Part shown: positions 9,586-37,342 of the stretch, in pieces
Numbering within the stretch: position 1 is the stretch's first letter
Layout of the letters: every line of letters starts with the position of its first letter
Assembly: GCF_039541335.1 (NCBI RefSeq)
Contig: NZ_BAABGA010000029.1
Location: 211,215-275,214, forward strand
Reading direction: 5' to 3'
Source of the DNA: Novipirellula rosea
GTDB taxonomy: Bacteria > Planctomycetota > Planctomycetia > Pirellulales > Pirellulaceae
DNA length: 64,000 bases
Program-made: the position numbers and the translations under genes
Notes under the pieces: generated by a model
Databases searched by the model: none
What the model saw: only the letters and a program-made list of their open reading frames with translations
What the model was told of the DNA's origin: nothing

Positions 9586-9591
9586 TCGCTG

Positions 9592-15500: not shown

Positions 15501-15981
15501 TAATCCAAACGGCCCTCGCTCGCGAGTCATGGTGGACGCGAATTGGCATCAAATGCTTTCTTCGCTTCCCGAATCTGCGGTGCCCTCGATTTTTCGTGCT
15601 CTGCACACTGCCAACGGTCAATCTCGCTCCGAGGCGGTTTCGGCGAAAGACGACGCATTGCTGCAAGAGCTTCGTTTGCTCGACCACGATGCACGGTGCG
15701 AGCGGCTGGAAATCTACTTCAGCGAGCAACTTGGCAAAATCATGTCGTTGGACCCGACCACATTGGATCGATCCGAATCGCTCGGTTCGCTCGGTCTCGA
15801 TTCGCTGATGGCCATCGAGTTGAAAAACACGATCGAAACCAAGTTGGCAATCGTGATCCCGATCAGCCATTTCATGGACGAACCCAGCATTGCCACGTTA
15901 GCGAAGATTGCTGCCGAGATCATCGGAGCCGATGCGGCGGAAGCGAGTCACGAGCAAGAATCGTCGGTCGCTTCGGATTAG
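9592..15981 (+). CDS. Type I polyketide synthase, single fully reducing module (KS-AT-DH-ER-KR-ACP)
   Basis: KS DTACSSALVAV with HGTGT and GHTE motifs. AT GHSIGEIAALYAA. DH HPxxxDG (HPTLLDGALQ). ER MDR-type with GGVG Rossmann. KR GGSGAIAAG with YAAAN. ACP LGLDSLMAIEL. No TE, R or C domain. Confidence 0.95.
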   Translation: MDKQLAARLAKLTPAQRALLQNRLGSRPPSAVNDSNAIAIIGMGCRMPGADSPDAFWDLIQQQRESVGPVPASRWDRDQYFDPSGRTPGKMSVDAMGAVSNVDMFDPAFFGIAPREASRMDPQQRLLLEVAWETIEDAGVPIERLSGTQTGVFIGIGGTDYSKIPARYPDYFEQIDAHMGTGNALSIAAGRISYLFDLQGPSFIVDTACSSALVAVHSAVISLLRGESNAAIAGGVNLILSPETTIAFSKARMLSPDGRCRSFDENANGYVRGEGCGLILMKRAADAVRDGDLILAMIRGSAVNQDGRTSGITAPSGSAQQRVIRNAMKAAEISVDDLTYIEAHGTGTPLGDPIELMALSETFAARDENLPPVHIGSVKANIGHTETVSGIAGMIKVLKMCQHQWIAGQANFGKLNPNAKLDSNRLRIATENQAWTPNKQGRFLAGVSSFGFGGTNAHVILEKAVGTNTPEQEAPRVPPCFFLPLSTRSEDAMPKAARQALGRLTDSSTTDALQTHNLCGSYAKYRSMLSHRAVALGESSSELSKGLQRLAEGVASKQAVSGRPVHGRRPRIALLFTGQGSQYAGMALGLVQTLPSFQQSLEACAAILDPVLNLSLLELICDDVPRRSLDDTAMAQPAITAVQIALVDSLADVGIVPDVVAGHSIGEIAALYAAKALSKEQALMLAAHRGRLMGELPQCGTMTAVLASAAVVQQWIDELESDAVIAAINGDQNTVIAGTHEAVERIVAKAEAAGTMCRPLKVSHAFHSPLMQDAADPLRASLSQWVGDVKLPPYVTFVSSVTGAAQEGTIDVDYWIRHLMSPVRFGDVMAELANQNIDLAIEVGPRPQLTGMIRRSLKSDAGEPLLRTVDTLHPDDNDYTNWIRAVATAWCVGAPVDFSAIDRIYPSQRVALPTYPFVRQRCWHSPPALESGIGGQSVHPVLGSRQRLASGGLLFISHLAINKPGYLSEHVVAESVTVPAAAWIDALGIAAKELFGEFAFELFEVTIHRALFLHKDQSVEIQTTADPIQGGQSQIQIHSRSQGDDSEWTLSATCRVKKASGTMLAALKSLSPSQATAVDRAGFYESLAASGLRYGELFQPLRSILNQDHTSSAQLEIDASLVSEAKRSLVHPTLLDGALQLIATTMPASIRQSADPPTFLPVGVDRVVTQDGTEIASAVVRRHENTNDQWSEVVADVQLLDREGRICVSLQGVRCKRLQKDHTRYQMDPQQWIYECSWTPVSVADGNSGEDHDTYPIRHFGSAIYQTLIPKTFEPSSSQEHWLWTQPHTHDDVEASVCELLEFIQTAVRQPTTPLVSLVLQSAFGIGNENSIPASAALAAMARVAANEYPALQIRMLDVAVCDAASTEPVTSWLARQSNETELAFRNGQFLSPRLMASPRSLSKPSDASQLPIPLSGSYRVRLDGTNRTEGLWVERMAMPKPKPDEVVISVDAVGLNFSDVLKAMGLYPGISDEVVPLGIEASGTVTAIGDQVQSVGIGDHVMGIVPYGFASDVATKEYLLVKIPSGISPQEAASIPVAYMTAHYALRNIGRLAAGETVLIHAAAGGVGLAAIEVAHSVGATVFATAGSELKRRLLSMLGIDPQNIFDSRDIDSLHTIGARTGGRGVDVVLNSLPGEWINRSLELLAAHGRFLEIGKTDIYQNRQLGLLPFQDNLTYSAIDLDRLFRHRPEQVRTLFAEVAEQFAKGIYQPKPITTFALSDLPASLRFMSARRNIGKIVVSPEKNATHDGRDHVTADGAYLISGGSGAIAAGITRRLIQRGATKVVLLARREATERVEALIRWAEENGAECLYLQCDCTNQDELLAAMRQLPPAMRPVVGVIHTAGLLDDGLMHEMTPESVARVLRPKVDGAVALAKATEDQPLRMFNMLGSVASVFGSPGQANYAAANGFLEGFAARRRNEGLPANVVHWGPWSSAGMADDPTRLKNLASRGLRPLRFDAALDLLIDAGNPNGPRSRVMVDANWHQMLSSLPESAVPSIFRALHTANGQSRSEAVSAKDDALLQELRLLDHDARCERLEIYFSEQLGKIMSLDPTTLDRSESLGSLGLDSLMAIELKNTIETKLAIVIPISHFMDEPSIATLAKIAAEIIGADAAEASHEQESSVASD

Positions 15982-16523: not shown

Positions 16524-17057
16524 ATGGGTGCCACCGAATCAACACGCAGCGCCGAATCAACACGCAGCGCCGGATCCGAACGCAGCGCTGAATCCGAACG
16601 CAGCGCCGAATTACAAGGCAATCGCTACTTTCGCCGCTCGGTCGCCATCCATCGCGTGGCACAGCGTCGCGGTACCGTCAGCGTCGAATTTGCCTTTGTC
16701 GCCATTCCGATGTTTATCTTGCTGTTTGCAGCCGTCGAACTAGGCCGCGGAATGATGACGGTCCAAGCGTTGGAGGAAGCGGCACGATCGGGTTGCCGGA
16801 TCGCGGTACTCAAAGGAGCCAGCGCCTCGGATATCAAAGCCGAAGTCAAACAATTGACCGAAGCGATGGGAATCTCCAAACACAGCATCGAAATAGAACC
16901 CGCGTCGCTAGACACCACTCCGCAATGGGATCCCGTCACGGTGCGTGTCACTGCGAACTTTGCCGATATGACTTGGTTACCAGTTCCACGTCATTTCAGC
17001 GGCATGAGTTACACCGCCGCTTGTGTTTTGCCTCGTGAAGGCGAGCTCGTTCAATAG
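16524..17057 (+). CDS. TadE-like minor pseudopilin
   Basis: RRGTVSVEFAFVAIPMFILLFAAVELG is the TadE N-terminal motif. An alternative in-frame GTG at 16656 would give a canonical short N-terminus. The first 44 codons of the track ORF are an 18-bp tandem repeat. Confidence 0.65.
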   Translation: MGATESTRSAESTRSAGSERSAESERSAELQGNRYFRRSVAIHRVAQRRGTVSVEFAFVAIPMFILLFAAVELGRGMMTVQALEEAARSGCRIAVLKGASASDIKAEVKQLTEAMGISKHSIEIEPASLDTTPQWDPVTVRVTANFADMTWLPVPRHFSGMSYTAACVLPREGELVQ

Positions 17058-17124
17058 TCTTGATGGGTTAGCGTTCTCTCCACGCCATACGCAATGGCAT
17101 TTCACTTTTCTTCAGCGAGTTACG

Positions 17125-18315
17125 ATGATGCCGCAAATTGCTTTCTCTCCAGCGTGCAAACGTCGCGGGGGCACGATTGTGTTGTTTGCCGTTTTAATGG
17201 TCGTCATTGTTGGTATGGCGGCCTTCGCGGTGGACATTGGCCGGATGCAATTGGTCCGCAGCCAATTGCAGTCCGCAGTGGATGCAGGAGCAATCGCCGG
17301 AGGACTGCACCTTAAAAACAACCCCGATGATATTCAGGGTGCCAAGACGGTGGCGGAAAGTTTTATTGCCAAGAACAAAGTGGGCTTCGTGGTCGATGTA
17401 CCACCGGATACGATCGCTTTGGAAACCGGAAACTGGGACCCCAACACCGAAACCTTTACCGTATCAAACACCAGCGCCAGTGCGATTCGGGTGCACGCGG
17501 TTCAAGACAAAGAGCCTTTCTTTTTCGCGGGCATCTTTGGTCAATCCTCGTTCTCGATCCCACGCCATGCCATTGCATCCGCACCCGGTATCCCGCTGGA
17601 TATCGTCATGGTCCTCGACTTGTCGGGATCGATGAGCTCCGATGGACGCATCGAAGCACTACAACAAGCTTCGCCTGAATTTGTCGGGATGATCGAGCTG
17701 TCGCTGAAAGAAGACCGTATCGGAGTGATGGGGTACGGTGCCCGAAAAGGTAGCTACGATCCCAAAAAAGCGGGACACACCGGAATCATGTATACCGCAA
17801 CGCCGTCCAGCTTGTTTCCGGATCCCTATGACACGTCCACGGACTGGGTTGGCATTCTCGAAGCTCGGATGACAAATGATTTCTCATTCTTGAAGAACAG
17901 CATTCTGTCGAGCAGTTCGTTGACGTCCGACAAATACGGCGGAGGAACTCCGATCGGTGCTGCCGTTCGCGATGGGGCTCACTATCTGTATGCCAATCAC
18001 CGCAAACACGACAGCCACGGTAACAAAGTCAAGATGTTGATGGTGGTGATGAGCGACGGCTATGCCAACAAACCTGAAAACGACCCGGACCAATACGCGA
18101 TCGCGATGGCAAACTATGCCGAAAGCCTTGGGATCGAAATTCACACGATTAGCTTGGGAGACGACGCGGATGTCGCGTTGATGACCGCGATTGCAAACGC
18201 AACCGGCGGTAAACAGTTTTCGGCCACAGGCAGCGGAAGCGAACTTACCCGTACGTTGAAACAGGCCTATCGTAACATCGCCGGCACGATCAACCGCACC
18301 GTTTTAGTGCAATAG
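17125..18315 (+). CDS. TadG-like pilus assembly protein with vWA domain
   Basis: N-terminus RRGGTIVLFAVLMVVIVGMAAFAVDIGRM is a Tad pseudopilin TM segment. The vWA MIDAS motif is VLDLSGSMS. The track ORF starts upstream at 17023, but Met 17125 fits better. Confidence 0.7.
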   Translation: MMPQIAFSPACKRRGGTIVLFAVLMVVIVGMAAFAVDIGRMQLVRSQLQSAVDAGAIAGGLHLKNNPDDIQGAKTVAESFIAKNKVGFVVDVPPDTIALETGNWDPNTETFTVSNTSASAIRVHAVQDKEPFFFAGIFGQSSFSIPRHAIASAPGIPLDIVMVLDLSGSMSSDGRIEALQQASPEFVGMIELSLKEDRIGVMGYGARKGSYDPKKAGHTGIMYTATPSSLFPDPYDTSTDWVGILEARMTNDFSFLKNSILSSSSLTSDKYGGGTPIGAAVRDGAHYLYANHRKHDSHGNKVKMLMVVMSDGYANKPENDPDQYAIAMANYAESLGIEIHTISLGDDADVALMTAIANATGGKQFSATGSGSELTRTLKQAYRNIAGTINRTVLVQ

Positions 18316-18319
18316 AATC

Positions 18320-18775
18320 ATGATGTCATTTTTAAAACCAAAGTCGATTGCTCGTCGTCACGCGAAATCTCGATTCATCGGACGACGAAAATCACACGGG
18401 ATCGCGGCGGTGGAATTTGCCGTCGTCTTGCCGCCCCTGTTGTTGCTGATCCTGGTATCGGTCGAGGTGGCTCGCGCCTTTGCCGTCCAGCACTCGCTAC
18501 AAGAAGCGTGTATCAATGGGTGCCGTATCTACGCCCTTGGCGACAAGACGCAGCAACAGGCAAGTGACATGATTAATCTGTCGCTAGGCGAAGCAGGCAT
18601 CTCGGGACACACTATCGATTTCGTCCCTGCGACCAAGGCGGAGATCACGGCCGAGATGCAGCCGGTCACGGTCACCATCTCGGTGCCATACAGCCAAGTC
18701 GGAGTCGGTGTACAGTGGATGTTGGCCGGCACAACGGTCACGGCCAGTACGACGCTGCCAGCGGAATCACGCTAA
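18320..18775 (+). CDS. TadE-like minor pseudopilin
   Basis: GIAAVEFAVVLPPLLLLILVSVEVARA TadE motif, 151 aa. Confidence 0.7.
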   Translation: MMSFLKPKSIARRHAKSRFIGRRKSHGIAAVEFAVVLPPLLLLILVSVEVARAFAVQHSLQEACINGCRIYALGDKTQQQASDMINLSLGEAGISGHTIDFVPATKAEITAEMQPVTVTISVPYSQVGVGVQWMLAGTTVTASTTLPAESR

Positions 18776-24727: not shown

Positions 24728-27700
24728 CTACTGCGGCGGAGTGATATTCTGGTTGCCTGGATCGATCGCCGACTCCATTTGCTGGTAGTTTTTCAGCATC
24801 GCTTCGAGCTGTGATCTCAGCTTCTCTAAGTCACGGCCATTTTCAAGCGACTCGCTCAAAATTGGACGCAGCCATTCTTGCATCAAATGAAATTGGCCTT
24901 TGACAAGATCCGCTAACACGCGTGGCACCTTGTGCTGGACCAAGACTTTTTGGTCCGGCGGCGATGCCGCCTGCTGTTCGCTGATTCGCTCCAGATTTTT
25001 GCTGGTTGCGTGCAGCGTTTCGGAAAGCTGTGATGCCGACGCGGTCACACTTTGACGCAGCAGGTCGATCCGTGCGTCCATTCGCTCCTCGGATCCATCA
25101 CTGCCCACCGCGATCGCACGTGAGATGACTTGGCGGATCGATTCGAGCCCGTCTCGCATCGCCCCGAGTTGACGCATCAACTGGCCCGCTTGGTCTTCGC
25201 TATCCATGCCCTGCATGCGAACGCTTTCGACGAACGCGTATTTGATCGAATCCCAACGCTCTTTCTCTTCCGTCGTCAAAATCCCCATCAACTCTTTGAA
25301 CTTCAGCACATTCGCTTCGTTGTCCGTCGTCAACGTTTGCGCGTCCTGTTCGTAATTGCTGATGATCAGCGTTTGCAATTCCTTCTCGTTCATCACCCCC
25401 GCGACTCGCTCGGCGATGCGGTTCATGTTTCGGTAGCTACCTTGCAACTTGAACGGTGGTTCGGTTCGATAGGAATCGGCTTGCGCGGCACTGCGAATGT
25501 AGGCACGATTGACCTTCAGCACGACATCGCGAACTCGCAGTAATTTACGCACGACCTCGTACATCTCGCGGACTTGATCCATCGACAAATTGCTTTCCAG
25601 CTCAATGCCTTCGATCGAATCACGCTCGGCCGCGCGGATGATCGCACGCGAATCTTCTACGGGAACCGTCGACAGCGGCGCAAGTGTGCGGTTGCTGGTC
25701 AAGCAGTTTTCCAAGTAGCTCATTTCGAACGCGTCGGCCGAATCGCCAATGATCTCGCCCAGGTTATAAACATCGGCGCGGTTGGAAAGCATGTCCGGAA
25801 TCTGGAAGCGATCACCGCTCTCGGTATACGGGTTGCCCGCCATCACGACGGCGACACGTCGGCCGCGCAGATCGTACGTGCGAGTCTTGCCATTGCGAAC
25901 GCCTTCGATCTTACGCGTCGCGTCACACAACGAAATAAATTTTTGTAGCAGTTCGGGGTGCGTGTGCTGGATATCATCCAGGTACAACATCACGTTGTCA
26001 CCCATTTCGAGTGCCAAATTGAGCCGTTCGATCTCTTCACGCGCCGCCGCATTCGGAGCTTCCGCAGGATCAAGCGACGTCACACCGTGGCCAATCGCTG
26101 GACCATTGATCTTCATAAAGACAATGCCAAGCCGGTTGGCGATGTATTCCATCAACGTCGTCTTGCCGTACCCCGGTGGCGAGATCAGCAGCAGCAATCC
26201 CATCCGATCGGTTCGCTTGTCGGCACCCGCCGAGCCCATTTGTTTCGCTAGATTATCGCCAATCAGCGGCAAGTAGACTTCGTCCAACAATCGGTTACGG
26301 ACAAAGCTGGTCAGCACTCGCGGCTTGAACTCTTCTAACCGCATATCGTCACGGGCCGCATCAACCAATCGCGTTTTCGTTTCGTGCAATCGCTCGAACC
26401 GAGGAACGACGTCACCGCGATAGCCGCGAACGCGGTCAAGCAGTTCGTGATAGTGCAGCGTCATGACGCCTTTTTCGATCCGCGGATGAGCCCCCGCCAT
26501 CGAGTCGAGTCGTTTTGCGACCGCTGCGTCGGCAACCGACATCGACTCGGTTCCGCCACATTGGATTAGCCAGGCAAGTTCATCCAGATAAAACGAAGCC
26601 GGATCCAGATCGTCCGGATTTGCATGCGATTGCAAATAGGCCTCGGCCCAATTACGAGCCAAGATAAAGCTCGCGACGGGATCGGATTGATTGTTTTTGA
26701 GCGAACTTTCAAGCAACTTTTGACGATCCGATTCTGGCAACGTTTCCGCGAACGCGTGATGCAGATCGGCAGCCCGTTTGCTGGCGGTGTTTTGCCGTCC
26801 TTTGGCGACCAATTGATCAAACAAATAGTCCGCGATCCGCTGCTCATTCACAGCGGGCGGAAAAATCGGTGCCCAGTGCGATCGGTCGATAGACGCAAGT
26901 TCGGCAAGCCGTTGACGAAACTGAATCGCAGGTTTGGCGTGCGGATAGGCTTTGGCAAGTTTTGCAAATCCACCGATCCACTCGGTCATCGACTTGTTCT
27001 GTTTGGCGTCGAGAATCTTGGTGAACCACAACAACGACGCGGCTCGAACCGATGGCGAGTGACGCAGTAAACCAATCGTTTGATTCATTTCCAACAGCGT
27101 TGACAGAATCCGCACTGCGTCCCCATCGTGCACGCCTTTGGAATAGCCTTCGCTAAACCGACCCGCCAGCTGAGTTTGCATCCATTTCAAGTCGATCGAT
27201 TTGGGATCCATCGGGTTCGCCGACGACGCAGTGAGCGTTTCAAACAAATCGACGGCCAGATACTCACTGCGGTAAACGTCCGCGTTTTCGCTGATCAGTT
27301 CTTGGTTCCAAAGATCTTTGGCCGCCGTGAGCGCCTCGTCGCGAAGCGGCTCAAAAAACTGAGTGCCCGTCAAATGCAAACAAATCTCGCCGCCGCGAAG
27401 CACGGTGGTCAGATCCAATGGCTGCGTATTGACGGCAAATCGGTGTTGGCCCAGCCAAATTACGTCGCCGCCGTCTTCGTAAAGATCCTGGCGGTCTTTG
27501 AGCTGACGTGATGCATCTTCGCGAATCGTTTTCAACCGGCTCTGCAGGTCTTCCACCCGGACAGCGTCGTCGAGGTCACCGAGTTGCTCGATGATGTCGC
27601 GTACCTTTTCGACCATCAAGTCGCCAGCGAAATAGGCTGCGATCTCGTCGCTTGATTCCATCGATCGGACACGAGAATCGATGCCTTTGAGGATCCGATC

Positions 27701-29986
27701 CGCGGCCGATGACAACGACTCGGCCCGTCGGTTGCGTTTTTCAGTCAGCTGGACTTTTCGCGATTCGAACGCTGCATAAACATCTTCGCGTCGCTGAGCC
27801 AATTGGACGATAAACTCGTCGAATTCAGCGAACCGTCCCTCTAGCTCCTCCAATTGGACCATCACCTTGGTCAAGTATTCATCACACTTGGCAACCGAGT
27901 CGCTGACGTCCAAATAGCCAGCGGTGGTTTGCTGAAGCAGTTTCAATTGGGATGCAAATTCGGCTTGCCCTTCGACGCTGACCAATTCGCTAACGCGTGC
28001 CTTTAGCGAACTGCGGACGCGGTTCAGCGAAGCAAAAACGTTACCGATAGCGTCGATGATTTCCGTTCGCTTAGTCGAGTCGTCAATTCGCAGATTACTA
28101 ACGGTCTCGGTTAGCAGTTCCAACTGACTGGCTGATTCATCAATCGTCTCGCCTAGCTTCTTTGCCTCGGCCACCGTTTGCACTTGGCCCACAGCCTCGC
28201 CCGCATCGGTCACTTGGTCCTGGTACGGATCAAGAGCGCCGGGAGTCAGCAGGAAATCGACACAGCGGCGACTGAGCCGTTCGGCACGTTCGGCGGTGGT
28301 CTTTTCGAGTGTTTCGACCAAATCAAGATCAACGTAACGCAGTTCTTTCAGGGCGAGGGCATGCCCACGTTGTTGTCGCAATTTGGCCAGGAAATCAACG
28401 AAGTTTTCGATCGATTCGAACCGTCCACGCTCGATCTCTTTGACGAGGGCTTCGACATTCTGCTGCACTTGATTGGTTTGCGCCAGCGTGTCGCGACGAA
28501 CGCGAACCACCTTCTCAAACTCTTCGACTGCGGCCGAGGCGGCTTCGCGGATTTTTTGCAGTGGCTCGGAAAGCTTTTCGGTCTCGGGTTTGTCGATCCA
28601 GAAATAGCTGTCTAAAACGTCCGATGCTTTTTTAACCAGGTCGACGTAGAGCCCGTCGTAGCTGTCGTCCTTATCGATCAATTGCAGCAGTTCGCTGCAT
28701 TCGGCCATCCCGCGGACAATTTCTTTGTTGCCGATTTTGAACAGCAGCGAATCGGTTTGATTTTCCGGAACGTGGTCGGCACTGGTGAACGGAGTCTGCC
28801 AGACCTGGATCGCATGGTGTTTTTGGGGTTGCTCGTGGGTCTTGAAGCAAACCATCTCGCCAGCATCGAACAGAGTTTGTCCGTTGCAAACCAATGGGGT
28901 GTCAACCGATTGCCGAATCAGGTTATAGCGAAGCTGGACGTAGGTGCCCGATTCATTGTTGTAGAACAAGTACAGAAAGTCTTCGCCGTTAGCCGCTGCG
29001 ACCGTGCGTTGATAACGCATGTCGCCCAGCCCATGGTCAAACCGTTTGCATTGACCCGTTTGCAAGTAGTAGCCGCCTGGAAAAATCAATCCTTGGTCGC
29101 CAGGCAACATTACACAAGCATGTTCGATTTCATCGAGCCGAATCGCTTGCTGGATTTTACCATTAAAGACGATATAGCGAGTCTTGTCTTCCTGGTACGG
29201 ACGCACTTTCATCAGCACAAGATTGCCAACGATGGCGTAATGAATCTCGGCGTCATCAAGTTTCTGGTCGTGATGGTCAACCGGTTCGGCATAAATGCCT
29301 TCGCCCGAATCGGTGTTGTTTTCGATCTTGACGGTCAAATCGCCGCCGACGGTTTCGATAAAAACGCGGTCTTCAATCGAGATGTGAGGGTGAGCACCAT
29401 AGTGATGCTGGTCGCGAGTGGTGCGTTTCCAAGTGAATTCATGTTGCTGCGGATCACGAACCTCATGCTCGCTGCGGTTATCGAGATATTCGATCGAATT
29501 CGGAGTCACTCGCCATTTAAAACTCTTGATATCGCGATGGCTCTTGCCGACTCGAAACACCATATGCAGCATCGGCCCGACACGAAAAAAACGGGCGAAT
29601 GCGGTCCCTTTGTAGAACCGGTACAGTTCGTGAAAGTCGTTGGTGAAACGCTTGTCACCGATCAGCTCGAGTGATTCTTGGTGGAATTGATTGTCGGCGA
29701 AACGATAAACCGAGAAGACATCGGCGAGTTCGATTTCGGTTTTCAATCCGAATTGAACGTTATAGCCAAACAGAAACTTGTCGCCGACCGAGATCAGGTC
29801 ACGAGGCACACAGTTGTGATCGGTCGTTACACGTTCGGTGGTAATCAAACGCGTTTCGATATTGCCAAAGACCGCCGCCCGTTCTTCGTTCAGCTTGGCA
29901 AGACGCGCACGCAAGTCCGACGACGCATCGCGAAGCCGATTGCGAAGCACCTCATACGTTCCGGCAGCAAGTTGGGTGTCGGTCAT
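24728..29986 (-). CDS. Giant (1752 aa) coiled-coil protein with a single AAA+ (AAA_5/MoxR-like) ATPase domain
   Basis: Walker A LLLISPPGYGKTTL (coding nt ~26150-26190), Walker B VMLYLDD, sensor VVMAGNP. There is an N-terminal ~450-aa beta-rich region, about 400 aa of heptad-like coiled coil, and a C-terminal coiled coil. No other recognisable catalytic motifs. Confidence 0.8.
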   Translation of the reverse strand: MTDTQLAAGTYEVLRNRLRDASSDLRARLAKLNEERAAVFGNIETRLITTERVTTDHNCVPRDLISVGDKFLFGYNVQFGLKTEIELADVFSVYRFADNQFHQESLELIGDKRFTNDFHELYRFYKGTAFARFFRVGPMLHMVFRVGKSHRDIKSFKWRVTPNSIEYLDNRSEHEVRDPQQHEFTWKRTTRDQHHYGAHPHISIEDRVFIETVGGDLTVKIENNTDSGEGIYAEPVDHHDQKLDDAEIHYAIVGNLVLMKVRPYQEDKTRYIVFNGKIQQAIRLDEIEHACVMLPGDQGLIFPGGYYLQTGQCKRFDHGLGDMRYQRTVAAANGEDFLYLFYNNESGTYVQLRYNLIRQSVDTPLVCNGQTLFDAGEMVCFKTHEQPQKHHAIQVWQTPFTSADHVPENQTDSLLFKIGNKEIVRGMAECSELLQLIDKDDSYDGLYVDLVKKASDVLDSYFWIDKPETEKLSEPLQKIREAASAAVEEFEKVVRVRRDTLAQTNQVQQNVEALVKEIERGRFESIENFVDFLAKLRQQRGHALALKELRYVDLDLVETLEKTTAERAERLSRRCVDFLLTPGALDPYQDQVTDAGEAVGQVQTVAEAKKLGETIDESASQLELLTETVSNLRIDDSTKRTEIIDAIGNVFASLNRVRSSLKARVSELVSVEGQAEFASQLKLLQQTTAGYLDVSDSVAKCDEYLTKVMVQLEELEGRFAEFDEFIVQLAQRREDVYAAFESRKVQLTEKRNRRAESLSSAADRILKGIDSRVRSMESSDEIAAYFAGDLMVEKVRDIIEQLGDLDDAVRVEDLQSRLKTIREDASRQLKDRQDLYEDGGDVIWLGQHRFAVNTQPLDLTTVLRGGEICLHLTGTQFFEPLRDEALTAAKDLWNQELISENADVYRSEYLAVDLFETLTASSANPMDPKSIDLKWMQTQLAGRFSEGYSKGVHDGDAVRILSTLLEMNQTIGLLRHSPSVRAASLLWFTKILDAKQNKSMTEWIGGFAKLAKAYPHAKPAIQFRQRLAELASIDRSHWAPIFPPAVNEQRIADYLFDQLVAKGRQNTASKRAADLHHAFAETLPESDRQKLLESSLKNNQSDPVASFILARNWAEAYLQSHANPDDLDPASFYLDELAWLIQCGGTESMSVADAAVAKRLDSMAGAHPRIEKGVMTLHYHELLDRVRGYRGDVVPRFERLHETKTRLVDAARDDMRLEEFKPRVLTSFVRNRLLDEVYLPLIGDNLAKQMGSAGADKRTDRMGLLLLISPPGYGKTTLMEYIANRLGIVFMKINGPAIGHGVTSLDPAEAPNAAAREEIERLNLALEMGDNVMLYLDDIQHTHPELLQKFISLCDATRKIEGVRNGKTRTYDLRGRRVAVVMAGNPYTESGDRFQIPDMLSNRADVYNLGEIIGDSADAFEMSYLENCLTSNRTLAPLSTVPVEDSRAIIRAAERDSIEGIELESNLSMDQVREMYEVVRKLLRVRDVVLKVNRAYIRSAAQADSYRTEPPFKLQGSYRNMNRIAERVAGVMNEKELQTLIISNYEQDAQTLTTDNEANVLKFKELMGILTTEEKERWDSIKYAFVESVRMQGMDSEDQAGQLMRQLGAMRDGLESIRQVISRAIAVGSDGSEERMDARIDLLRQSVTASASQLSETLHATSKNLERISEQQAASPPDQKVLVQHKVPRVLADLVKGQFHLMQEWLRPILSESLENGRDLEKLRSQLEAMLKNYQQMESAIDPGNQNITPPQ

Positions 29987-30039: not shown

Positions 30040-30960
30040 GTTCCAGTTCGTCCGGCCGGATGTGGGTTTAGGCCCAAGGGGCCGGCTTGTTGTAGGCCCA
30101 AAGGGCCGGTGCTATGTCAGCCCAGGGCAACGCCCTGGGTTTGGTCATGATCCATCCGTACTAGTCCCAAGGGGACGGTCCTAATCCCAGACATAACGCT
30201 CGTCGATCGTAATGCCATGTCGGCGACAAAGTTCTCGAAACTCCTCTTTAAAAGTCATGTTCCGATGATGCATTTCCTGATTGGCGATGTAAGCCTTTAC
30301 CTCTGCAATGTTCGACTCGCTAACCGAAAACGCTCCGTATCCTCCCTGCCACGAAAATTGCGACAACGCTGTCGCTTGGCGTTTCACCCATTTGCTCGTC
30401 TCTGTTTTCGCCTGTTGAACGACATCTTTCATGGCAAAGTTTCGACTTAACAGAAACAATGCGTGGATATGATCCTCGACACCCCCAATAATGATGGCTG
30501 GCGAGTCAACGTTGTCACGAAGAATCGTCGCCATGTAGGCGTATAGCTCGTCGCAAAGGCTACGTGGTTTTAGGACGGGGTGTCGGTGCTTGGTAGAGAA
30601 CACGAGATGGATCGCAACTTTGGATAACGATTGAGGCATTGTTTCATCTCCAATGGGTTAGCGCCGCCCCGTTGGGGCTATCGTGCATTTTATTCCCGGC
30701 GAACCCAGGGCGTTGCCCTGGGCTGACATGGGTCCGTCCCGTTGGGACTACGAATCGTCCCGTTGGGACTTTCAATTTTCCTGAACACTTCAAAACCTGG
30801 GGCTTACGCCGCCAGGCTACTTTGTTTCGCCGCGATGCGGCTGGACCATCCAGGGCGTTGCCCTGGGCTGACATGGGCCCGTCCCGTTGGGACTACGAAT
30901 CGTCCCGTTGGGACTTTCAAAGCCGTTGGGACTACGCCTTGCCTTTCCTTGTTTTGCTGT
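30040..30960 (-). mobile_element. IS200/IS605-like RAYT (REP-associated tyrosine transposase) with flanking inverted REP arrays
   Basis: The CDS at 30181-30639 has HuH (HIHALF) and a conserved Tyr (KAYIANQ). REPs: CCCAGGGCAACGCCCTGGG at 30120-30138 on one side, and its inverted copy CCCAGGGCGTTGCCCTGGGCTGACATGGG at 30704 and 30850 on the other. GTCCCGTTGGGAC palindromes occur at 30736, 30757, 30880 and 30902, and GGCCCAAGGGGCCGG at 30070 and 30095. Local GC is visibly lower than the flanks. Confidence 0.8.
30181..30639 (-). CDS. RAYT / IS200-like Y1 transposase (TnpA)
   Basis: 152 aa, MPQSLSKVAIHLVFSTKHRHPVL...DHIHALFLL, typical IS200/RAYT N-terminus and HuH. Confidence 0.8.
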   Translation of the reverse strand: MPQSLSKVAIHLVFSTKHRHPVLKPRSLCDELYAYMATILRDNVDSPAIIIGGVEDHIHALFLLSRNFAMKDVVQQAKTETSKWVKRQATALSQFSWQGGYGAFSVSESNIAEVKAYIANQEMHHRNMTFKEEFRELCRRHGITIDERYVWD

Positions 30961-33070
30961 CCGCAGGGATCGCGGGGGTTAAGACTCGACTTGCTTTTTG
31001 ATCGGCGATGTTGGCGGTGCCGACGACGCCTAACAAACTGGTCAATTGCGAACGAACATCATCGGTCTTCGCCAACCCCATCATCTTCGCGATCAGTGCC
31101 GCGATCGACAAATCTTTCACTGAGTCGGCGTCCAGATTGAACTGCTTCATCAGTTCGTCTAGCTGATCCCGAAAATAGTCGGCGTTGCCATCGAAGAACG
31201 TGTCCTTGATGTCGGTCGCCACGCGGCTGTTGTAGACAAATCGGTCGATCGCTTTGCCGCCCTTGACCGCATTGGTAATCTGCTCGAAGAACTCGCCATC
31301 GCCACCGACAATGTCGATTCGTGCGGCTCGCAGGGCTTCGCCCATGACGCCTGCTTGGCTTTCGGCAATCCCGCGCTGCGCATCGATCGCTGCGATCTCG
31401 ACATCCTTTTCTTTCTCGAGCTTTAACTTGAACTCTTCGTGTTCCTTCCCGACGCTGTCGAGCTGTTTCATTGCTTCGGCTTTCTCGGTGATCCCGGTTG
31501 CCTCGCTGTGGTACTTCTCGCGTGACACGTTGGCTTCGGCCAGACCTTGTTTTTCGATCGCTTGGGCCTTGGCTTCGATTCCCTTGGCTTCGGCGATGGC
31601 TTTCTTTTCGAGCACGATCGCTTCGGCACTGCCTTCTTTTTCCAAGCTGGTTGCTTTCGCTTCTTGCACGGTCGCTTCGGCCAATCCCGATGCAGCCGCG
31701 GTCGCCGCGTCCGCTTCGGCCAGCATTTTCTTTGCCGCCGTGTCTTTCTCGGCAGCATCGCGACGTGCTTCGGCTTCGATGCGGATCTTTTCTGCGAGCA
31801 GCATGCTCGAATCCTTTTCCGCTTGCGCCTGTTTCGTGACGCGAATCAATTCTTCTTCGCCTCTCATCTCGGCCGCAGTCACTTGGACTTTCTTCAGTCG
31901 GTCGGCAGCCGCGATCTCTTCGGTGTCTTTGATTCGTTCTTTCTCTTCGACCACGGCTCGCTCGACCGCAACACGTTCGCGGATCACCTCTTGGATGTTG
32001 CGTTTCTCGATCTCGATCGCCTTCTCTTTCTCAACCTCGGCGACCCCGACCACTCGCAATCGCTCGGTCATTTCCAAGTCGCGGTCACGATTGACACGCT
32101 CCAGCTCGACCGCGTCGGTCTTTTCCTTGTTCCGCTGTGCGACCAAAATTTGACGCGACTTGTTTTCTTCGGCAACGCCCAGTTCCTCTTCGGTCGCAAT
32201 CCGAGCTCGCTCGGCTTCGAGCCGTTGCTCTTCACGCACCTTGGCGGCCGAGGCTTGTTCTCGCGAAGTGATTTCAGCAATCTCGCGTTTCTGTTTTTCG
32301 ACAGCTTCGACACGTTGACGTTCGAGTTCCAAGATGGTTTCTTCCGCTTCGACGTCCTGCTTCTTAAGCGTTTTTTCTTTGTCGCGAGTAAACTGGTTCT
32401 CTTTGACCTTTTCCGACGAGGTTAATTCGGTGATCTTTTTGATTCCCTCGGCGTCCAGGATATTGTTGGGACTGAGCATTTCCAGCGGCGTTTGTTCGAG
32501 ATAATCGATCGCCGCGTCGTCCAGACGGTAACCGTTCAAATCGGTACCGATCACCTTCAAAATTTCTTCTTTGAACTTGTCACGTTGATCGTACAGGTCG
32601 ACAAAGTCGAACTGCTTACCGACCGTTTTCAGAGCTTCACTGAATTTTGCGTCAAACAATTCGCGAAGCGTTTCCAGTTCGCTACACCGCTTTGCACCAA
32701 TCGACTGAGCCACCTCACGCATTTCTTCGTCGGTTTTATCGACTCGAATAAAGAATGCCACTTTGATGTCGGCTCGAATGTTGTCTTTACAGATCAAACC
32801 TTCGCTGCCTTGACGGTGGATTTCGAAGCTTTTGAGTGTCAAGTCCATGAACTCGTAGCGATGAAACATCGGCACAATGAATTTGCCGCCTGCGGTGGTC
32901 ACGTCGAGTCCACCGAGTCCGGATTTAACGATTGCGCGGTCGGGACCAACGACGATGTAGTACTGTTTGAACGTCACCAGCAATGCGATGAACGCGATCA
33001 ACACGAAGTACAACATTAACATTGGACCCGAGGTCCAATTGATTTCCGAGATCAATAACAACGAGGTCAC
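30932..33070 (-). CDS. Flotillin-like SPFH/band-7 protein
   Basis: N-terminal TM, SPFH domain, and a long EA-repeat coiled coil (EAEARRDAAEKDTAAKK, AEAKGIEAKAQAIEKQG) typical of flotillin FloT/YqiK. Confidence 0.9.
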   Translation of the reverse strand: MTSLLLISEINWTSGPMLMLYFVLIAFIALLVTFKQYYIVVGPDRAIVKSGLGGLDVTTAGGKFIVPMFHRYEFMDLTLKSFEIHRQGSEGLICKDNIRADIKVAFFIRVDKTDEEMREVAQSIGAKRCSELETLRELFDAKFSEALKTVGKQFDFVDLYDQRDKFKEEILKVIGTDLNGYRLDDAAIDYLEQTPLEMLSPNNILDAEGIKKITELTSSEKVKENQFTRDKEKTLKKQDVEAEETILELERQRVEAVEKQKREIAEITSREQASAAKVREEQRLEAERARIATEEELGVAEENKSRQILVAQRNKEKTDAVELERVNRDRDLEMTERLRVVGVAEVEKEKAIEIEKRNIQEVIRERVAVERAVVEEKERIKDTEEIAAADRLKKVQVTAAEMRGEEELIRVTKQAQAEKDSSMLLAEKIRIEAEARRDAAEKDTAAKKMLAEADAATAAASGLAEATVQEAKATSLEKEGSAEAIVLEKKAIAEAKGIEAKAQAIEKQGLAEANVSREKYHSEATGITEKAEAMKQLDSVGKEHEEFKLKLEKEKDVEIAAIDAQRGIAESQAGVMGEALRAARIDIVGGDGEFFEQITNAVKGGKAIDRFVYNSRVATDIKDTFFDGNADYFRDQLDELMKQFNLDADSVKDLSIAALIAKMMGLAKTDDVRSQLTSLLGVVGTANIADQKASRVLTPAIPADSKTRKGKA

Positions 33071-33756
33071 GATGCGGTCTCCGATGGCAGATTAGTGACG
33101 ATGTAGATGCGTTTCTGTTTTTCAAATCCGACGATGCGAACCTCGGTCCCTTTGGGGATATGAGCTCCGTCGGTACGGACATTCAGTAGTAGTGGGGCTG
33201 CGTTGGTGCGAAATTTGGCTTGTCCAAACTCCGGTGTCGCTTCGCTGGTAGTGATTTCACAGGTGCCGCCGACCATGCGACTTTCGTCGTACGAGGGCGG
33301 ATCGACAAAGTAACCTAGCATCGGCTGCGTGATCGCCTTGGTAATTCCGGTGGCAATCACAAAATTGCGGATCGACAACAGGATGCTGGGCAGCCAATCC
33401 GGGGAATAACGCGCCGAATCAAAGCTGTGCCAAAGCCAGTACGAGATTCCCCAGAACGCGACCGAAAAGATCCCGCCCCATAGCACGATGGGAATCCGTC
33501 CAAAATTGGTCCAGCGAACTGCCGCCCCGCCCAGTCCCTGTAACAAGTCGGCATCGACCGAGATCATCTCGCCGTCCGGCAGATCGACGCCGACATCGGG
33601 AACATCCAAATCGACGTCAGGAACGTCAAAACCGAAATCAACCAACCCAATAATCGCCAGGATCGTATAGACAACCAACAAACAAATCAGGATGGATGCC
33701 GGCCACAAGGGGCCGACAAACATGCGGTTGGCGAGATCGATAATCGAGTCCGACAC
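33067..33756 (-). CDS. NfeD-like membrane protein (YqiJ/YuaF family)
   Basis: Multi-TM N-terminus plus a C-terminal OB-fold-like soluble domain (GTEVRIVGFEKQKRIYIV). Overlaps the flotillin start by 4 bp. Confidence 0.7.
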   Translation of the reverse strand: MSDSIIDLANRMFVGPLWPASILICLLVVYTILAIIGLVDFGFDVPDVDLDVPDVGVDLPDGEMISVDADLLQGLGGAAVRWTNFGRIPIVLWGGIFSVAFWGISYWLWHSFDSARYSPDWLPSILLSIRNFVIATGITKAITQPMLGYFVDPPSYDESRMVGGTCEITTSEATPEFGQAKFRTNAAPLLLNVRTDGAHIPKGTEVRIVGFEKQKRIYIVTNLPSETAS

Positions 33757-34019: not shown

Positions 34020-34081
34020 ACAAAAATTGGCTCGTGGGACCGATGACAGGCTGGAAACCAATCCCACACTGAAAATTGATT

Positions 34082-37000
34082 ATGATGGACGCTCCTGCCG
34101 ACCTTCGGTCTAACCCGAACGCCATCCCTCCGACCACCGATGCCAAAATCTGGGCATCCGTAAACATCATGATGATATCCCGCCTTGCCGCTTTCCTGAT
34201 CGTCGCCTCTTTTGCCAGTTCCACGCTGTCGCTGCAGGCAGAAATGCTGCGGCGAGCGGCACCCTTGGGCGATCAACTCAAAGCGGCCGATCCGCACTAT
34301 CTGGCCGAGCAAGTCCGATTGCGAGGTGATGCCCATCGAGGTGCGCTGGTGTTCTTTAAGTCGGCCGCTGGATGTGTGAACTGTCACAGCAGCGGTGACC
34401 AAGCTTCGCCGCTTGGACCGAATCTTGCCGAACTCGGATCCGATTTGACCGACGAATACCTAATCGAGTCGCTGTTGTTTCCGTCGCGTCATATCCGCAA
34501 AGGTTTTGAAACCGTTTCGCTGCTGACGGTGGACGGACAAGTGTATGTCGGCTTGATCGCTGGCGAGGATGACAAACAGATTCGCATGCGATTGTCGAGC
34601 GATCTGACTCACGACTTTGTGGTGACTCAGGAAGAAGTCGAAGAACGCAATGTAAATTCCAAGTCGTTGATGCCCGATGGTTTGATCGGATCGCTAAAAG
34701 ATCAACGCGAGTTCCTTGATCTTGCTTGCTATGTGATCGAAGTGGCTCGCGGGGGCAAAACGCGAGCATCACAGCTGCAACCCTCGCCTGAACAACTGCG
34801 GGTTGTCGATGACTCGATCGACTTGGACCACGCGGGGATTATCAAAGGATTGGGCCGACGCGACTTCACCGCCGGCGAGGCGATCTATCACGGCTACTGT
34901 TTCGATTGCCATGGCAGCGACGGTAATACCCCGTCACTTTCGACAGCGCGAGCGTTTGGAACTCAGAAGCTAAAGTTTGGTGCCGACCCGTACCAGATGT
35001 TTATGACGTTGACCAAGGGCAATGGATTGATGGCGTCGATGTCTCACTTGACGCCAAAAGAACGTTACCAAGTCGTGCACTACATCCGCGAAGCGTTCAT
35101 GAAAGGGAACAATCCCGATTACGTCAAAGTCACGCCCGAACTGCTGAAATCGCTGCCCACCGGCACCAAGGACGGCACCGAGATCGAGAACGTTCAACGT
35201 GACTTTGGCCCCGCGTTGGCATCTCAACTTCGCCGCGATTTCCCCAGCGTGCTGAACATCCGACTTGGTGACGCGACGATCGCCTACAACTTGCACGCGA
35301 TGGACCAAGCGGATGTGTGGAGCGGTGGATTTCTTGACTTGAGCGAAACACAACATGTCCGTCCTCGCGGCGAAGGCACTGCAAACCCTGACGGGGAATC
35401 GATCCAGGGGCTCGCCGGATGGCACTGGGGACACGGTGGCACCCTCGATTATTCACGCAAAGGCCTGCTGCCACGCGGGCCCATGCCCGCAGAGTGGATG
35501 GACTACCACGGCCACTACCTCCACAACGATCGGGTGACACTCAGCTATGCAATCGATGGTCGCGAAATACTCGAGTCGCCGCAGGAACTGGGCAACCGTG
35601 CCGGAAGCGAGGTGATTGTTCACGAGTTGAAAATTGGCCCCGGTGGTGAACTGATCCTCGCCATTGCCGAGAACGCGGATAACGCAACCGCCATCGTCCG
35701 AGGCGATCACCGCGATTTGACGCCCCACTCTGATGACAAGAATCGCTTGGTACTACGAATTCCTGCGGACACGCGGTCGCGGACGATACAAGTCTATCGC
35801 ACCGAAGGGCAAGATCGCTCTTCGCTACAGAAGCTTGCGGATTCATTCACGCCGACGATGGATTTAGCGTCACTGACCCAAGGAGGCTCGATGTTGTGGG
35901 CGGATGAACTGGAAACGGTTGGCTACCTGGGGCTCGAAAAGGGGGGCTATGCACTGGATACACTCGCGATCCCCGAATCCACGCCTTGGAACACTTGGTT
36001 CCGCACCTCGGCGCTCGATTTCTTTCCCGATGGGCGGATGGCATTGGCAACCCATGGCGGCGATATTTGGATCGTGTCGGGCATCGACGATGACTTGCTA
36101 AATCTTCGCTGGAAACGATTCGCCGCGGGGCTTTACGAACCGTTTGGAGTCAAGATTGTCGATGGAAAAATCTATGTCACCTGCAAGGATCGATTGACTC
36201 GGCTGCACGATCAAGACGGCAATGGTGAGGCGGATTTCTACGAGAGTTTTTGTGCCGACATCGATGTGTCGACCAACTTTCATGCATTCAATTTTGATTT
36301 GCAAACCGACGACGAAGGCAACTTCTACTACGCAAAAAGTGGACATGGCGCCGATTTCTCGCTGCCGGGCGCCGTGTTCAAAATCTCGCCTGATGGCAAA
36401 CATCGTGAAGTCTTGTCGACCGGCTTTCGCACGCCCAATGGGCTGGGCAGTATGCCAGGCGGTCGGATCACCGCGAGCGATAACCAGGGCCAATGGACGC
36501 CCGCCTCGAAAATCAACTTGCTAAAACCAGGCGGCTTCTATGGCTGGGTACCGACCTATTCGATCCCTGGCAAATGGGAGCCCGATGGTGGCAAAATTGA
36601 CATCACCAAACTGGTGCCTCCGACGTCGTTTGACCGGCCCTTGGTTTATATGACGCAAGAGTTCGACAATTCATCAGGAGGGCAAATTTGGGTAGAGGAT
36701 TCACGGTTTGGTCCGCTCGCAGGCCATCTGCTGCACACCAGTTTCGGTCGCGGATGGATGTCGTATTTGATGATCCAAGATGTGGGCGACCTCAGCCAAG
36801 CGGCGATCGTGAATCTGCCGTTTGATTTTTCGACCGGGATCATGCGAGGGCGTGTGAATCCCGCCGACGGCCAAGTCTATGCGACCGGCCTGCAAGGCTG
36901 GAACGGTGGCGGCCGGATTGGCTTGGAAGAAAAGGGACTGCAACGCCTTCGCTACACTGGACGTCCCTATCCCATGGTCACGGACGCATCGGTACAAGCC

Positions 37001-37342
37001 GACGGCTTGACCCTGACCTTCAATTTCCAGCTGGACCCAGACGTGGCGACGGATGTGCGTTCGTACAATGCGACTCAGTGGAATTATCACTGGAGTCGTA
37101 ATTATGGATCGGATCAATTTTCTGTGAAAACCGACAAAGCTGGTGTCGACGAAGTTGCAATCGAGTCCGCCACGGTCGACAACAGTGGTTCGGTGGTCAA
37201 GCTGCAGATCGATGGCATGCAGCCCGCCGATCAATTGCATCTGATTTTGCATGTGCGCGATCGCAATGGAGATGCTTTTGAGGAAGAAATCTACTGGACT
37301 ATCAACCGTGTCCCCGAAGTGGAAAACAATCGTGCGAATTAA
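34082..37342 (+). CDS. PVC-type heme-binding CxxCH protein with putative membrane-bound dehydrogenase beta-propeller domain
   Basis: Two heme c sites (CVNCH, CFDCH). A large beta-propeller-like region with repeated GxxDG motifs. The architecture is common in Planctomycetes/Verrucomicrobia. The track ORF starts at TTG 34076. Confidence 0.7.
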   Translation: MMDAPADLRSNPNAIPPTTDAKIWASVNIMMISRLAAFLIVASFASSTLSLQAEMLRRAAPLGDQLKAADPHYLAEQVRLRGDAHRGALVFFKSAAGCVNCHSSGDQASPLGPNLAELGSDLTDEYLIESLLFPSRHIRKGFETVSLLTVDGQVYVGLIAGEDDKQIRMRLSSDLTHDFVVTQEEVEERNVNSKSLMPDGLIGSLKDQREFLDLACYVIEVARGGKTRASQLQPSPEQLRVVDDSIDLDHAGIIKGLGRRDFTAGEAIYHGYCFDCHGSDGNTPSLSTARAFGTQKLKFGADPYQMFMTLTKGNGLMASMSHLTPKERYQVVHYIREAFMKGNNPDYVKVTPELLKSLPTGTKDGTEIENVQRDFGPALASQLRRDFPSVLNIRLGDATIAYNLHAMDQADVWSGGFLDLSETQHVRPRGEGTANPDGESIQGLAGWHWGHGGTLDYSRKGLLPRGPMPAEWMDYHGHYLHNDRVTLSYAIDGREILESPQELGNRAGSEVIVHELKIGPGGELILAIAENADNATAIVRGDHRDLTPHSDDKNRLVLRIPADTRSRTIQVYRTEGQDRSSLQKLADSFTPTMDLASLTQGGSMLWADELETVGYLGLEKGGYALDTLAIPESTPWNTWFRTSALDFFPDGRMALATHGGDIWIVSGIDDDLLNLRWKRFAAGLYEPFGVKIVDGKIYVTCKDRLTRLHDQDGNGEADFYESFCADIDVSTNFHAFNFDLQTDDEGNFYYAKSGHGADFSLPGAVFKISPDGKHREVLSTGFRTPNGLGSMPGGRITASDNQGQWTPASKINLLKPGGFYGWVPTYSIPGKWEPDGGKIDITKLVPPTSFDRPLVYMTQEFDNSSGGQIWVEDSRFGPLAGHLLHTSFGRGWMSYLMIQDVGDLSQAAIVNLPFDFSTGIMRGRVNPADGQVYATGLQGWNGGGRIGLEEKGLQRLRYTGRPYPMVTDASVQADGLTLTFNFQLDPDVATDVRSYNATQWNYHWSRNYGSDQFSVKTDKAGVDEVAIESATVDNSGSVVKLQIDGMQPADQLHLILHVRDRNGDAFEEEIYWTINRVPEVENNRAN

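Follow-up and report, generated by a model that had tools for sequence, protein, structure and literature searches.

The closest described counterpart of the gene analyzed here comes from a survey of PspA genomic contexts, in which Ravi et al. (2024, mSystems, PMC11237479) used comparative genomics to describe an operon containing a 'Betapropeller + Coiled-coil + AAA-ATPase' protein. The survey drew an analogy with Vps4 and ESCRT-III and reported a wider distribution for "abbreviated operons", which lack PspA. According to a 2025 review (PMC7619361), a Vps4-like ATPase "appears absent in bacteria". We analyzed a 64,000-nucleotide (nt) window of the planctomycete Novipirellula rosea (contig NZ_BAABGA010000029.1, positions 211,215 to 275,214; coordinates below are those of the window), which carries the gene of a 1752-residue AAA+ ATPase. 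This protein belongs to the family described by Ravi et al. and shares with their operon the domain order and the two upstream genes, which encode a YqiJ/NfeD-like membrane protein and a flotillin-like SPFH protein. Their Dokdonia donghaensis example, next to ANH61663.1, has a gene order (Table S3 of PMC11237479) identical to that seen here in Flavobacteriia. For this ATPase we tentatively propose a role in remodeling membrane scaffolds.

The window differs from the published operon in two respects. A Y1-transposase/REP (repetitive extragenic palindromic) element lies between the SPFH and ATPase genes, and the ATPase carries a Planctomycete-type C-terminal tail of ~127 residues. The description of the protein can also be refined: in our models the "coiled coil" is predicted to be a rod resembling spectrin repeats, and the models add two predicted domains that are unmentioned there, a small one of beta structure and a large one that is all-alpha.

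The ATPase family and its conserved gene cassette

Pfam scanning matched residues 24-462 of the ATPase to the entire PF12458 (DUF3686) profile (positions 1-448 of 448; score 637.8 bits, cut-off 25; E 9.9e-192) and residues 584-666 to PF25472 (DUF7902; score 96.6 bits, cut-off 26; E 9.7e-28). A public protein search with the ATPase returned more than 4000 homologues. The top matches were an identical protein in two metagenome runs, and the closest cultured relative was Novipirellula galeiformis (87% identity). Searching 1.84 billion representatives with residues 1-1200, and with no filter applied, recovered 445 clusters (50% identity) at E <= 1e-30. Full-length members were nearly all 1550-1930 residues long and aligned collinearly, in one stretch, to query residues 1-1200; such homologues came from at least eight phyla. 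A tblastn scan of genomes gave 581 matching loci, of which the best-scoring 80 were examined. These 80 came from Planctomycetota, Bacteroidota, Verrucomicrobiota, Desulfobacterota, Kiritimatiellota, and Clostridia, and their matches ran from query residue 1 to ~1620-1750. Plasmid and chromid records added carriers in Streptomyces, Nonomuraea, Deinococcus, Pseudomonas, Proteus, Vibrio, Photobacterium, and Halomonas. Altogether, 13 of 72,556 plasmid records carried the family, most of them being chromids or megaplasmids (e.g. pQBR103), and none of 50,697 phage records did. Within Pirellulaceae the gene was found across genera, and its sequence identity followed taxonomy.

By these sequence comparisons, the gene is a genuine orthologue within a large, catalogued, and published family, and its DUF3686 + DUF7902 + AAA architecture is not new. 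A first-pass annotation, made from the letters of the window and their translations, had called this architecture atypical. The description holds relative to characterized AAA+ families, but the architecture itself defines a populous catalogued family. NCBI names that family "DNA repair ATPase", and Pfam describes PF12458 as "ATPase involved in DNA repair".

The two upstream cassette genes lie on the same strand as the ATPase gene (Table 1). In the SPFH protein, an N-terminal transmembrane helix (residues 12-42) is followed by a Band-7 domain, a long helical region rich in Glu, Ala, and Lys, and a C-terminal domain that is conserved. It matched Pfam Band_7 (E 6e-11) and Escherichia coli YqiK (30% identity over 450 residues, E 7e-47). 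Matches of the YqiJ-like protein were weak only, to Pfam NfeD (E 0.0018) and YqiJ_N (E 0.013), together with a collinear BLASTP match to E. coli YqiJ (E 0.002). Judged from homology and gene order, the ATPase gene comes third in a conserved cassette, after the yqiJ/NfeD-like gene and the SPFH gene. We regard the assignment to this family and operon as very nearly certain.

Linkage was counted only where 2.5 kb or more of upstream sequence was present (n = 64 loci). A full-length SPFH orthologue lay directly upstream and on the same strand in 60 of them, at gaps of 2 to 2358 nt, and the linked loci spanned the same six groups as the 80 best-scoring ones. Clustering of open reading frames (ORFs) over the loci gave only three widely common families: ATPases in 83 loci, SPFH proteins in 67, and YqiJ-like proteins of ~230 residues in 55, the last always encoded just upstream of the SPFH gene. 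The same SPFH-ATPase pair occurs in Streptomyces, where the genes are annotated "flotillin family protein" and then "DNA repair ATPase", and on the Pseudomonas fluorescens plasmid pQBR103. Identities of the ATPase and the SPFH protein to the window copies co-varied (Pearson r = 0.95, n = 62 loci), which fits joint inheritance and is also the pattern that shared phylogeny alone would give.

Some Bacteroidota loci have a longer operon. PspA_IM30 (Pfam E 4e-42) was found in 18 of 83 loci, all of them Bacteroidota, and lay directly upstream of the cassette in 17. CesT_Tir_1 (E 7e-56) was also upstream in 16 of those PspA loci. One Bacteroidota locus (L049, 1274-2029) and 14 others carry a divergent HTH_19/HTH_3 + Peptidase_S24 (LexA/CI-like) regulator gene upstream of the CesT-PspA-YqiJ-SPFH-ATPase operon; a regulator of the S24 type suggests de-repression through self-cleavage under stress. 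On pQBR103 (425 kb; L087, 85112-97641), the gene string comprises PspA, a rhomboid protease, DUF2491, DUF350, DUF1190, a glutathionylspermidine-synthase-like protein, the YqiJ-like protein, SPFH, and the ATPase. Two classes of PspA operon, kept apart by Ravi et al., are merged in this string.

The mobile element between the SPFH and ATPase genes of the window is an insertion and not part of the system. Its IS200/RAYT-type transposase scored 52.8 bits against NCBIfam IS200, slightly below the 55-bit cut-off. The transposase gene is flanked by 50-nt inverted repeats (30092-30141 and 30702-30751; 88% complementary) made of short REP-like palindromes, and a 71-nt unit within the element is duplicated at 30705-30775 and 30850-30920. 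The orthologous intergenic region of Stieleria is ~190 nt long with no transposase gene, and the three cassette genes are contiguous in both Stieleria and Crateriforma. The same Y1 insertion was present in two metagenome contigs with an identical ATPase. A Saprospiraceae metagenome-assembled genome (Bacteroidota; L033, 5662-6186) has a different Y1_Tnp ORF (Pfam E 7e-6) in the same spacer, and at other loci the spacer holds unrelated small lipoprotein-like ORFs. The SPFH-ATPase spacer appears to tolerate, or attract, insertions.

The rest of the window is housekeeping chromosome with polyketide synthase, Tad pilus, sulfatase, and cytochrome oxidase genes. On the plus strand, positions 7297-15981 encode a fatty-acyl-AMP ligase with an acyl carrier protein (ACP) domain (762 residues), followed by a 2129-residue fully reducing type I polyketide synthase (KS-AT-DH-ER-KR-ACP). 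On the same strand, positions 17023-18775 hold genes of TadG/TadE-like pseudopilins, with a VWA domain. Divergent from the yqiJ-like gene, a plus-strand gene at 34076-37342 encodes a 1088-residue protein with cytochrome c, DUF6797, and GSDH-like domains. A promoter scan did no better than on shuffled sequences, and promoter and terminator scans are uninformative for a Planctomycete.

Predicted domain organization and AAA+ motor

AlphaFold models were built on family alignments for two overlapping halves of the ATPase, residues 1-860 (mean predicted local distance difference test score, pLDDT, 86.7) and 821-1752 (mean pLDDT 76.6). After an N-terminal long helix, ~27 strands modelled within residues 46-397 form a predicted beta-propeller, in line with the beta-rich N-terminal region of the first-pass annotation. 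Foldseek against the PDB matched this propeller to 6- and 7-bladed structures (CyRPA, the clathrin heavy-chain N-terminal domain, neuraminidase-like and WD40 folds) with probabilities of 0.97-1.0. The propeller contains two invariant motifs, DQxLDDAEI (~240-248) and HHxxQxWQTPF (~390-400). The region from ~480 to ~880, earlier read as a heptad-like coiled coil, was modelled instead as a rod resembling tandem spectrin repeats (~470-835), with ten helices of 10-58 residues each between residues 473 and 835. Two peptides that had been quoted as examples of the beta-rich region and of the coiled coil were located at residues 249-276 and 512-539.

Residues ~838-1225, which the first-pass annotation left undescribed, were modelled with pLDDT mostly above 90 as a small beta domain followed by an all-alpha domain. 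Five short strands of the beta domain appear in both models, and its residues G846, F850, and N853 were invariant in two family alignments. The all-alpha middle domain is almost purely helical. A profile search of this domain against the PDB returned nothing at E <= 10, and Pfam returned nothing. We considered whether it could be a degenerate P-loop domain and rejected this candidate, as motif, Pfam, and secondary-structure evidence all argued against it. When the middle domain, rod, and C-terminus were scanned singly against Pfam, DUF7902 in the rod was the sole match. The supposed ~300-residue C-terminal coiled coil resolved into the AAA+ lid with a conserved helical extension (residues 1416-1625) and a poorly conserved tail (1626-1752). 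The tail had a mean conservation of 0.14 and an occupancy of 0.43 in a diverse alignment, and tblastn matches of Bacteroidota, Verrucomicrobiota, and Clostridia homologues stop near query residue 1622.

The sole P-loop motif of the protein, SPPGYGKT, lies where the first-pass annotation had placed it, at ~26150-26190 and about 1270 residues in. Conservation was assessed in two alignments, one of 32 family sequences (32-65% identity) and one of 27 loci from several phyla. Walker A (including K1275), D1337/D1338 of Walker B, N1385, R1403, and R1519 were invariant in both, which also answers the earlier suggestion to check conservation of an arginine finger and sensor 2. From their positions in the predicted fold, R1403 is the candidate finger and R1519 the candidate sensor 2. 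Conservation was highest in the AAA+ core (0.78, compared with 0.37-0.54 elsewhere). The invariance of its catalytic residues across homologues predicts a motor competent for catalysis.

The first-pass annotation had called the motor AAA_5-like, which is only roughly right. AAA_5 gave the longest alignment when the AAA region was scanned alone (124 residues, in 27 of 27 diverse members), but in the whole-protein scan AAA_5 reached 21.2 bits, below its cut-off of 22. PF00004 scored 28 against 21.2, covering only Walker A-beta2. In PDB sequence searches with the protein and with family profiles, only ~40 residues around Walker A matched any solved structure, and the Walker A-beta2 segment was nearest p97, Rix7, and VAT and also resembled RuvB. 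In NCBIfam, the only matches were to RuvB and CDC48, both below threshold. As the first-pass annotation had stated, no second ATPase domain and no nuclease motif was detected by motif scans, Pfam, secondary structure, or the model.

Table 1. Features of the ATPase, its cassette, and the inserted element. All coordinates are window positions; residue numbers refer to the ATPase.
Feature	Coordinates	Strand	Remarks
yqiJ/NfeD-like gene	33067..33756	minus	229 aa (amino acids), membrane protein; operon gene 1; stop overlaps SPFH start by 4 nt
SPFH gene	30932..33070	minus	712 aa, flotillin-like, YqiK type; upstream of ATPase, same strand
Inserted mobile element	30092..30920	minus	between SPFH and ATPase genes; not part of the system
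IS200/RAYT-type Y1 transposase gene	30181-30639	minus	Pfam Y1_Tnp E 3.5e-21
ATPase gene, whole ORF	24728..29986	minus	ATG to stop; 1752 codons; ~195 kDa
N-terminal long helix, residues 5-40	29867..29974	minus	AlphaFold, pLDDT ~90
Predicted beta-propeller, residues ~43-400	28787..29860	minus	six or seven blades; core of DUF3686 (24-462); AlphaFold, Foldseek, Pfam
Predicted helical rod, residues ~470-835	27482..28579	minus	resembles tandem spectrin repeats (three-helix bundles); holds DUF7902
DUF7902, residues 584-666	27989-28237		Pfam
Small conserved beta domain, residues ~838-880	27347..27475	minus	five short strands
All-alpha middle domain, residues ~881-1225	26312..27346	minus	~345 aa; pLDDT mostly 90-96
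AAA+ alpha/beta subdomain, residues 1226-1415	25742..26311	minus	
AAA+ lid and conserved helical extension, residues 1416-1625	25112..25741	minus	
Lineage-specific helical tail, residues 1626-1752	24731..25111	minus	pLDDT 40-68
Walker A SPPGYGKT, residues 1269-1276	26159-26182	minus	sole P-loop motif
Walker B hhhhDD, residues 1333-1338	25973-25990	minus	
Predicted beta-hairpin ahead of sensor 1, residues 1359-1372	25871-25912	minus	AlphaFold; between helix alpha3 and sensor-1 strand
Sensor-1 N1385	25832-25834	minus	
Arginine-finger candidate R1403	25778-25780	minus	within PDMLxNRAD
Invariant motif RTEPxFxLQGSYRxM, residues 1507-1521	25424-25468	minus	
Sensor-2 candidate R1519	25430-25432	minus	N-terminus of lid helix (1518-1527 in model)

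Proposed function and its alternatives

We propose that the protein assembles as a ring and spends ATP on remodeling the flotillin and/or PspA assemblies beneath the membrane when the envelope is stressed, a tentative reading to which we assign a probability of roughly 40-50%. The AAA+ module would oligomerize into the ring, and the propeller and spectrin-like rod would serve as an arm that docks on the scaffold itself or on its bound clients. ATP hydrolysis would then assemble, open, or dismantle the scaffold in envelope stress or membrane maintenance. In function the protein would parallel Vps4 on ESCRT-III, or FtsH within HflK/C cages, though lacking a protease. The ATPase would thus be the energy-consuming partner of a flotillin scaffold, and also of the PspA polymer where PspA is encoded in the operon or elsewhere. 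Ring formation, physical contact with the SPFH protein, and the direction of remodeling are elements that we infer. The modelled propeller, rod, and alpha domain would constitute a large non-catalytic arm, typical of partner-recognition modules. Topology fits as well, as a sequence scan of the ATPase found no transmembrane segment, hydrophobic segment, or signal peptide, and the SPFH protein has one N-terminal transmembrane helix with the rest soluble. A family that is widespread, retains intact catalytic residues, nearly always follows a flotillin-like gene, and in some phyla shares an operon with PspA is an obvious candidate for the energy source.

Several observations weigh against this proposal. 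Literature searches returned no experimental work on any member of the ATPase family, and two SPFH papers searched for the ATPase do not mention it. The 80 loci are the best-scoring of 581, and the most distant members are represented only by three plasmid records. No PspA or CesT match was found in the 64-kb window by tblastn; with no CesT/Tir-PspA dyad, the window represents the "abbreviated" version of the operon. In 4 of the 64 loci, including N. galeiformis, the ATPase gene stands apart from any SPFH gene. No divergent SPFH gene was found upstream in these four, where the genes instead encode 7TMR-DISM/SpoIIE, TPR, Uma2, and TonB_C proteins. In N. galeiformis, neither an SPFH nor a YqiJ-like gene occurs within 10 kb upstream of the ATPase orthologue, and a sulfatase gene is still the immediate downstream neighbor, there on the opposite strand. 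The operon is broken by rearrangement in this species. Given the unlinked loci and the mobile element in the window, co-transcription is not obligatory. The motor itself also departs from expectation: Walker B has DD instead of DE, which may indicate slow hydrolysis or switch-like behavior, and the segment equivalent to pore loop 1 (GPAIGHxVTSLDP) contains no conserved aromatic residue, only a mostly conserved His. Together, these two features argue against a fast threading unfoldase and leave room for switch- or lever-like action.

A rival account is membrane-protein quality control. Damaged or unfolded membrane proteins would gather in a flotillin/NfeD microdomain, to be extracted or refolded there by the ATPase as an unfoldase or extractase, much as with FtsH and HflK/C but with no protease domain. 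This account draws on the same SPFH linkage. The Walker A-beta2 segment is closest to the protein-unfolding enzymes p97, Rix7, and VAT, and the SPFH literature includes titles on cages that house FtsH and on the stabilization of unfolded proteins by flotillin. However, the missing aromatic residue in pore loop 1 argues against a classical threading unfoldase, and with a single conserved Arg in the segment equivalent to the second region of homology (SRH), the protein would not usually be classed as a threading motor of the classical clade. Moreover, no protease or chaperone partner is kept nearby, as the recurrent neighbors are only the SPFH and YqiJ-like genes and, in some loci, PspA and CesT. 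We consider a quality-control extractase unlikely. Lower still is the likelihood of a conflict system for anti-phage defense or stress suicide, with SPFH/NfeD as the membrane-acting module and the ATPase as switch, effector, or sensor. Band-7 proteins are known from some conflict systems. The Flavobacteriia operon is divergently paired with an HTH + S24-peptidase repressor, the family occurs on a few megaplasmids, and mobile elements have inserted between cassette genes. Yet PADLOC gave nothing credible for the ATPase, SPFH, or YqiJ-like proteins (LmuB at E 2e-4, a coiled-coil-level match to the helical region; next match 0.008), and on this ground we rejected a defense-system reading. The family's absence from phage records and scarcity on plasmids, its taxonomy-following distribution across Pirellulaceae genera, and the housekeeping surroundings of the window also count against it. 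Of the two contexts that the first-pass annotation had suggested, membrane remodeling was the right lead, and no support was found for a defense island.

The database name raises a further account, a true DNA repair ATPase of the SMC/Rad50/SbcC or RuvB type, to which we give almost no credence. Besides the Pfam and NCBI name, it can draw on a sub-cut-off RuvB_N match (E 3e-5) confined to the Walker A region and on the weak match of the helical rod to the SMC-like LmuB. But the protein has one contiguous AAA+ module rather than a split ABC head, with no LSGG motif, and its RuvB matches cover ~45 residues at 24 bits against a cut-off of 282. Neither a DNA-binding nor a nuclease domain was detected by Pfam or motif scans, no conserved DNA-metabolism gene lies nearby, the neighbors encode membrane proteins, and literature searches gave nothing tying the family to DNA repair. 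The near-constant position just downstream of a flotillin-like gene makes membrane-scaffold remodeling likelier than DNA repair. The "DNA repair ATPase" label is unsupported and misdirects the annotation of thousands of genes.

Scaffold remodeling also admits a bolder form, which we find doubtful. The family could be the missing bacterial counterpart of Vps4/NSF, a ring ATPase that docks through the propeller and rod on YqiK-type flotillin cages and PspA/ESCRT-III-like polymers and recycles them at the expense of ATP. If true, this would explain the turnover of membrane-repair scaffolds in many bacteria without a Vps4 homologue. How large flotillin and PspA sub-membrane assemblies are disassembled or regulated is a question that the ATPase family may answer, and tractable carriers of the family exist (Flavobacteriia, Streptomyces, Proteus, Vibrio, and the Pseudomonas plasmid pQBR103). 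The window itself contributes a modest result, a further orthologue whose operon has taken up a mobile element.

Comparison with known systems

The first-pass annotation had set the protein apart from SMC, dynein/midasin, BrxC/PglY, and McrB proteins, and this separation stands. Unlike SMC, Rad50, and SbcC, the ATPase has a contiguous AAA+ module near its C-terminus and no LSGG (ABC signature) motif, and its helical region was modelled as short three-helix bundles. Dynein and midasin have six concatenated AAA+ modules, whereas the ATPase has one. BrxC/PglY, McrB, and Lamassu differ in that the window ATPase has no credible PADLOC match and no defense-island context.

Among AAA+ clades, the AAA_5 alignment and the predicted pre-sensor-1 hairpin may point to likeness to MoxR/AAA_5 and to RuvB/HCLR, of the pre-sensor-1 hairpin superclade. 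The ATPase model shows no helix-2 insert, the cassette has no VWA partner, and Walker B ends in DD. Classical AAA proteins (p97, NSF, Vps4, and FtsH) are set apart by the single SRH Arg, the pore loop without an aromatic residue, the predicted pre-sensor-1 hairpin, and a similarity limited to ~40 residues.

The proposed pairing resembles the FtsH-HflK/C and m-AAA protease-prohibitin systems, each of which, by published accounts, ties an AAA+ machine functionally to an SPFH-family membrane cage. FtsH is membrane-anchored and carries a protease, whereas the window ATPase has neither a transmembrane segment nor a protease domain. HflK/C faces the periplasm. The ATPase must act in the cytoplasm, as it lacks both a transmembrane segment and a signal peptide.

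Vps4 and ESCRT-III provide the remaining comparison. Unlike Vps4, the ATPase has no MIT domain by Pfam, is ~4x larger, would recognize its partners through the propeller and rod, and has one SRH Arg rather than two. Its core partner is SPFH rather than PspA (60 of 64 loci compared with 18 of 83). The likeness lies in the single AAA+ module, in the genetic coupling of part of the family to PspA, a member of the ESCRT-III superfamily, and in the ATP-driven scaffold turnover that we propose.

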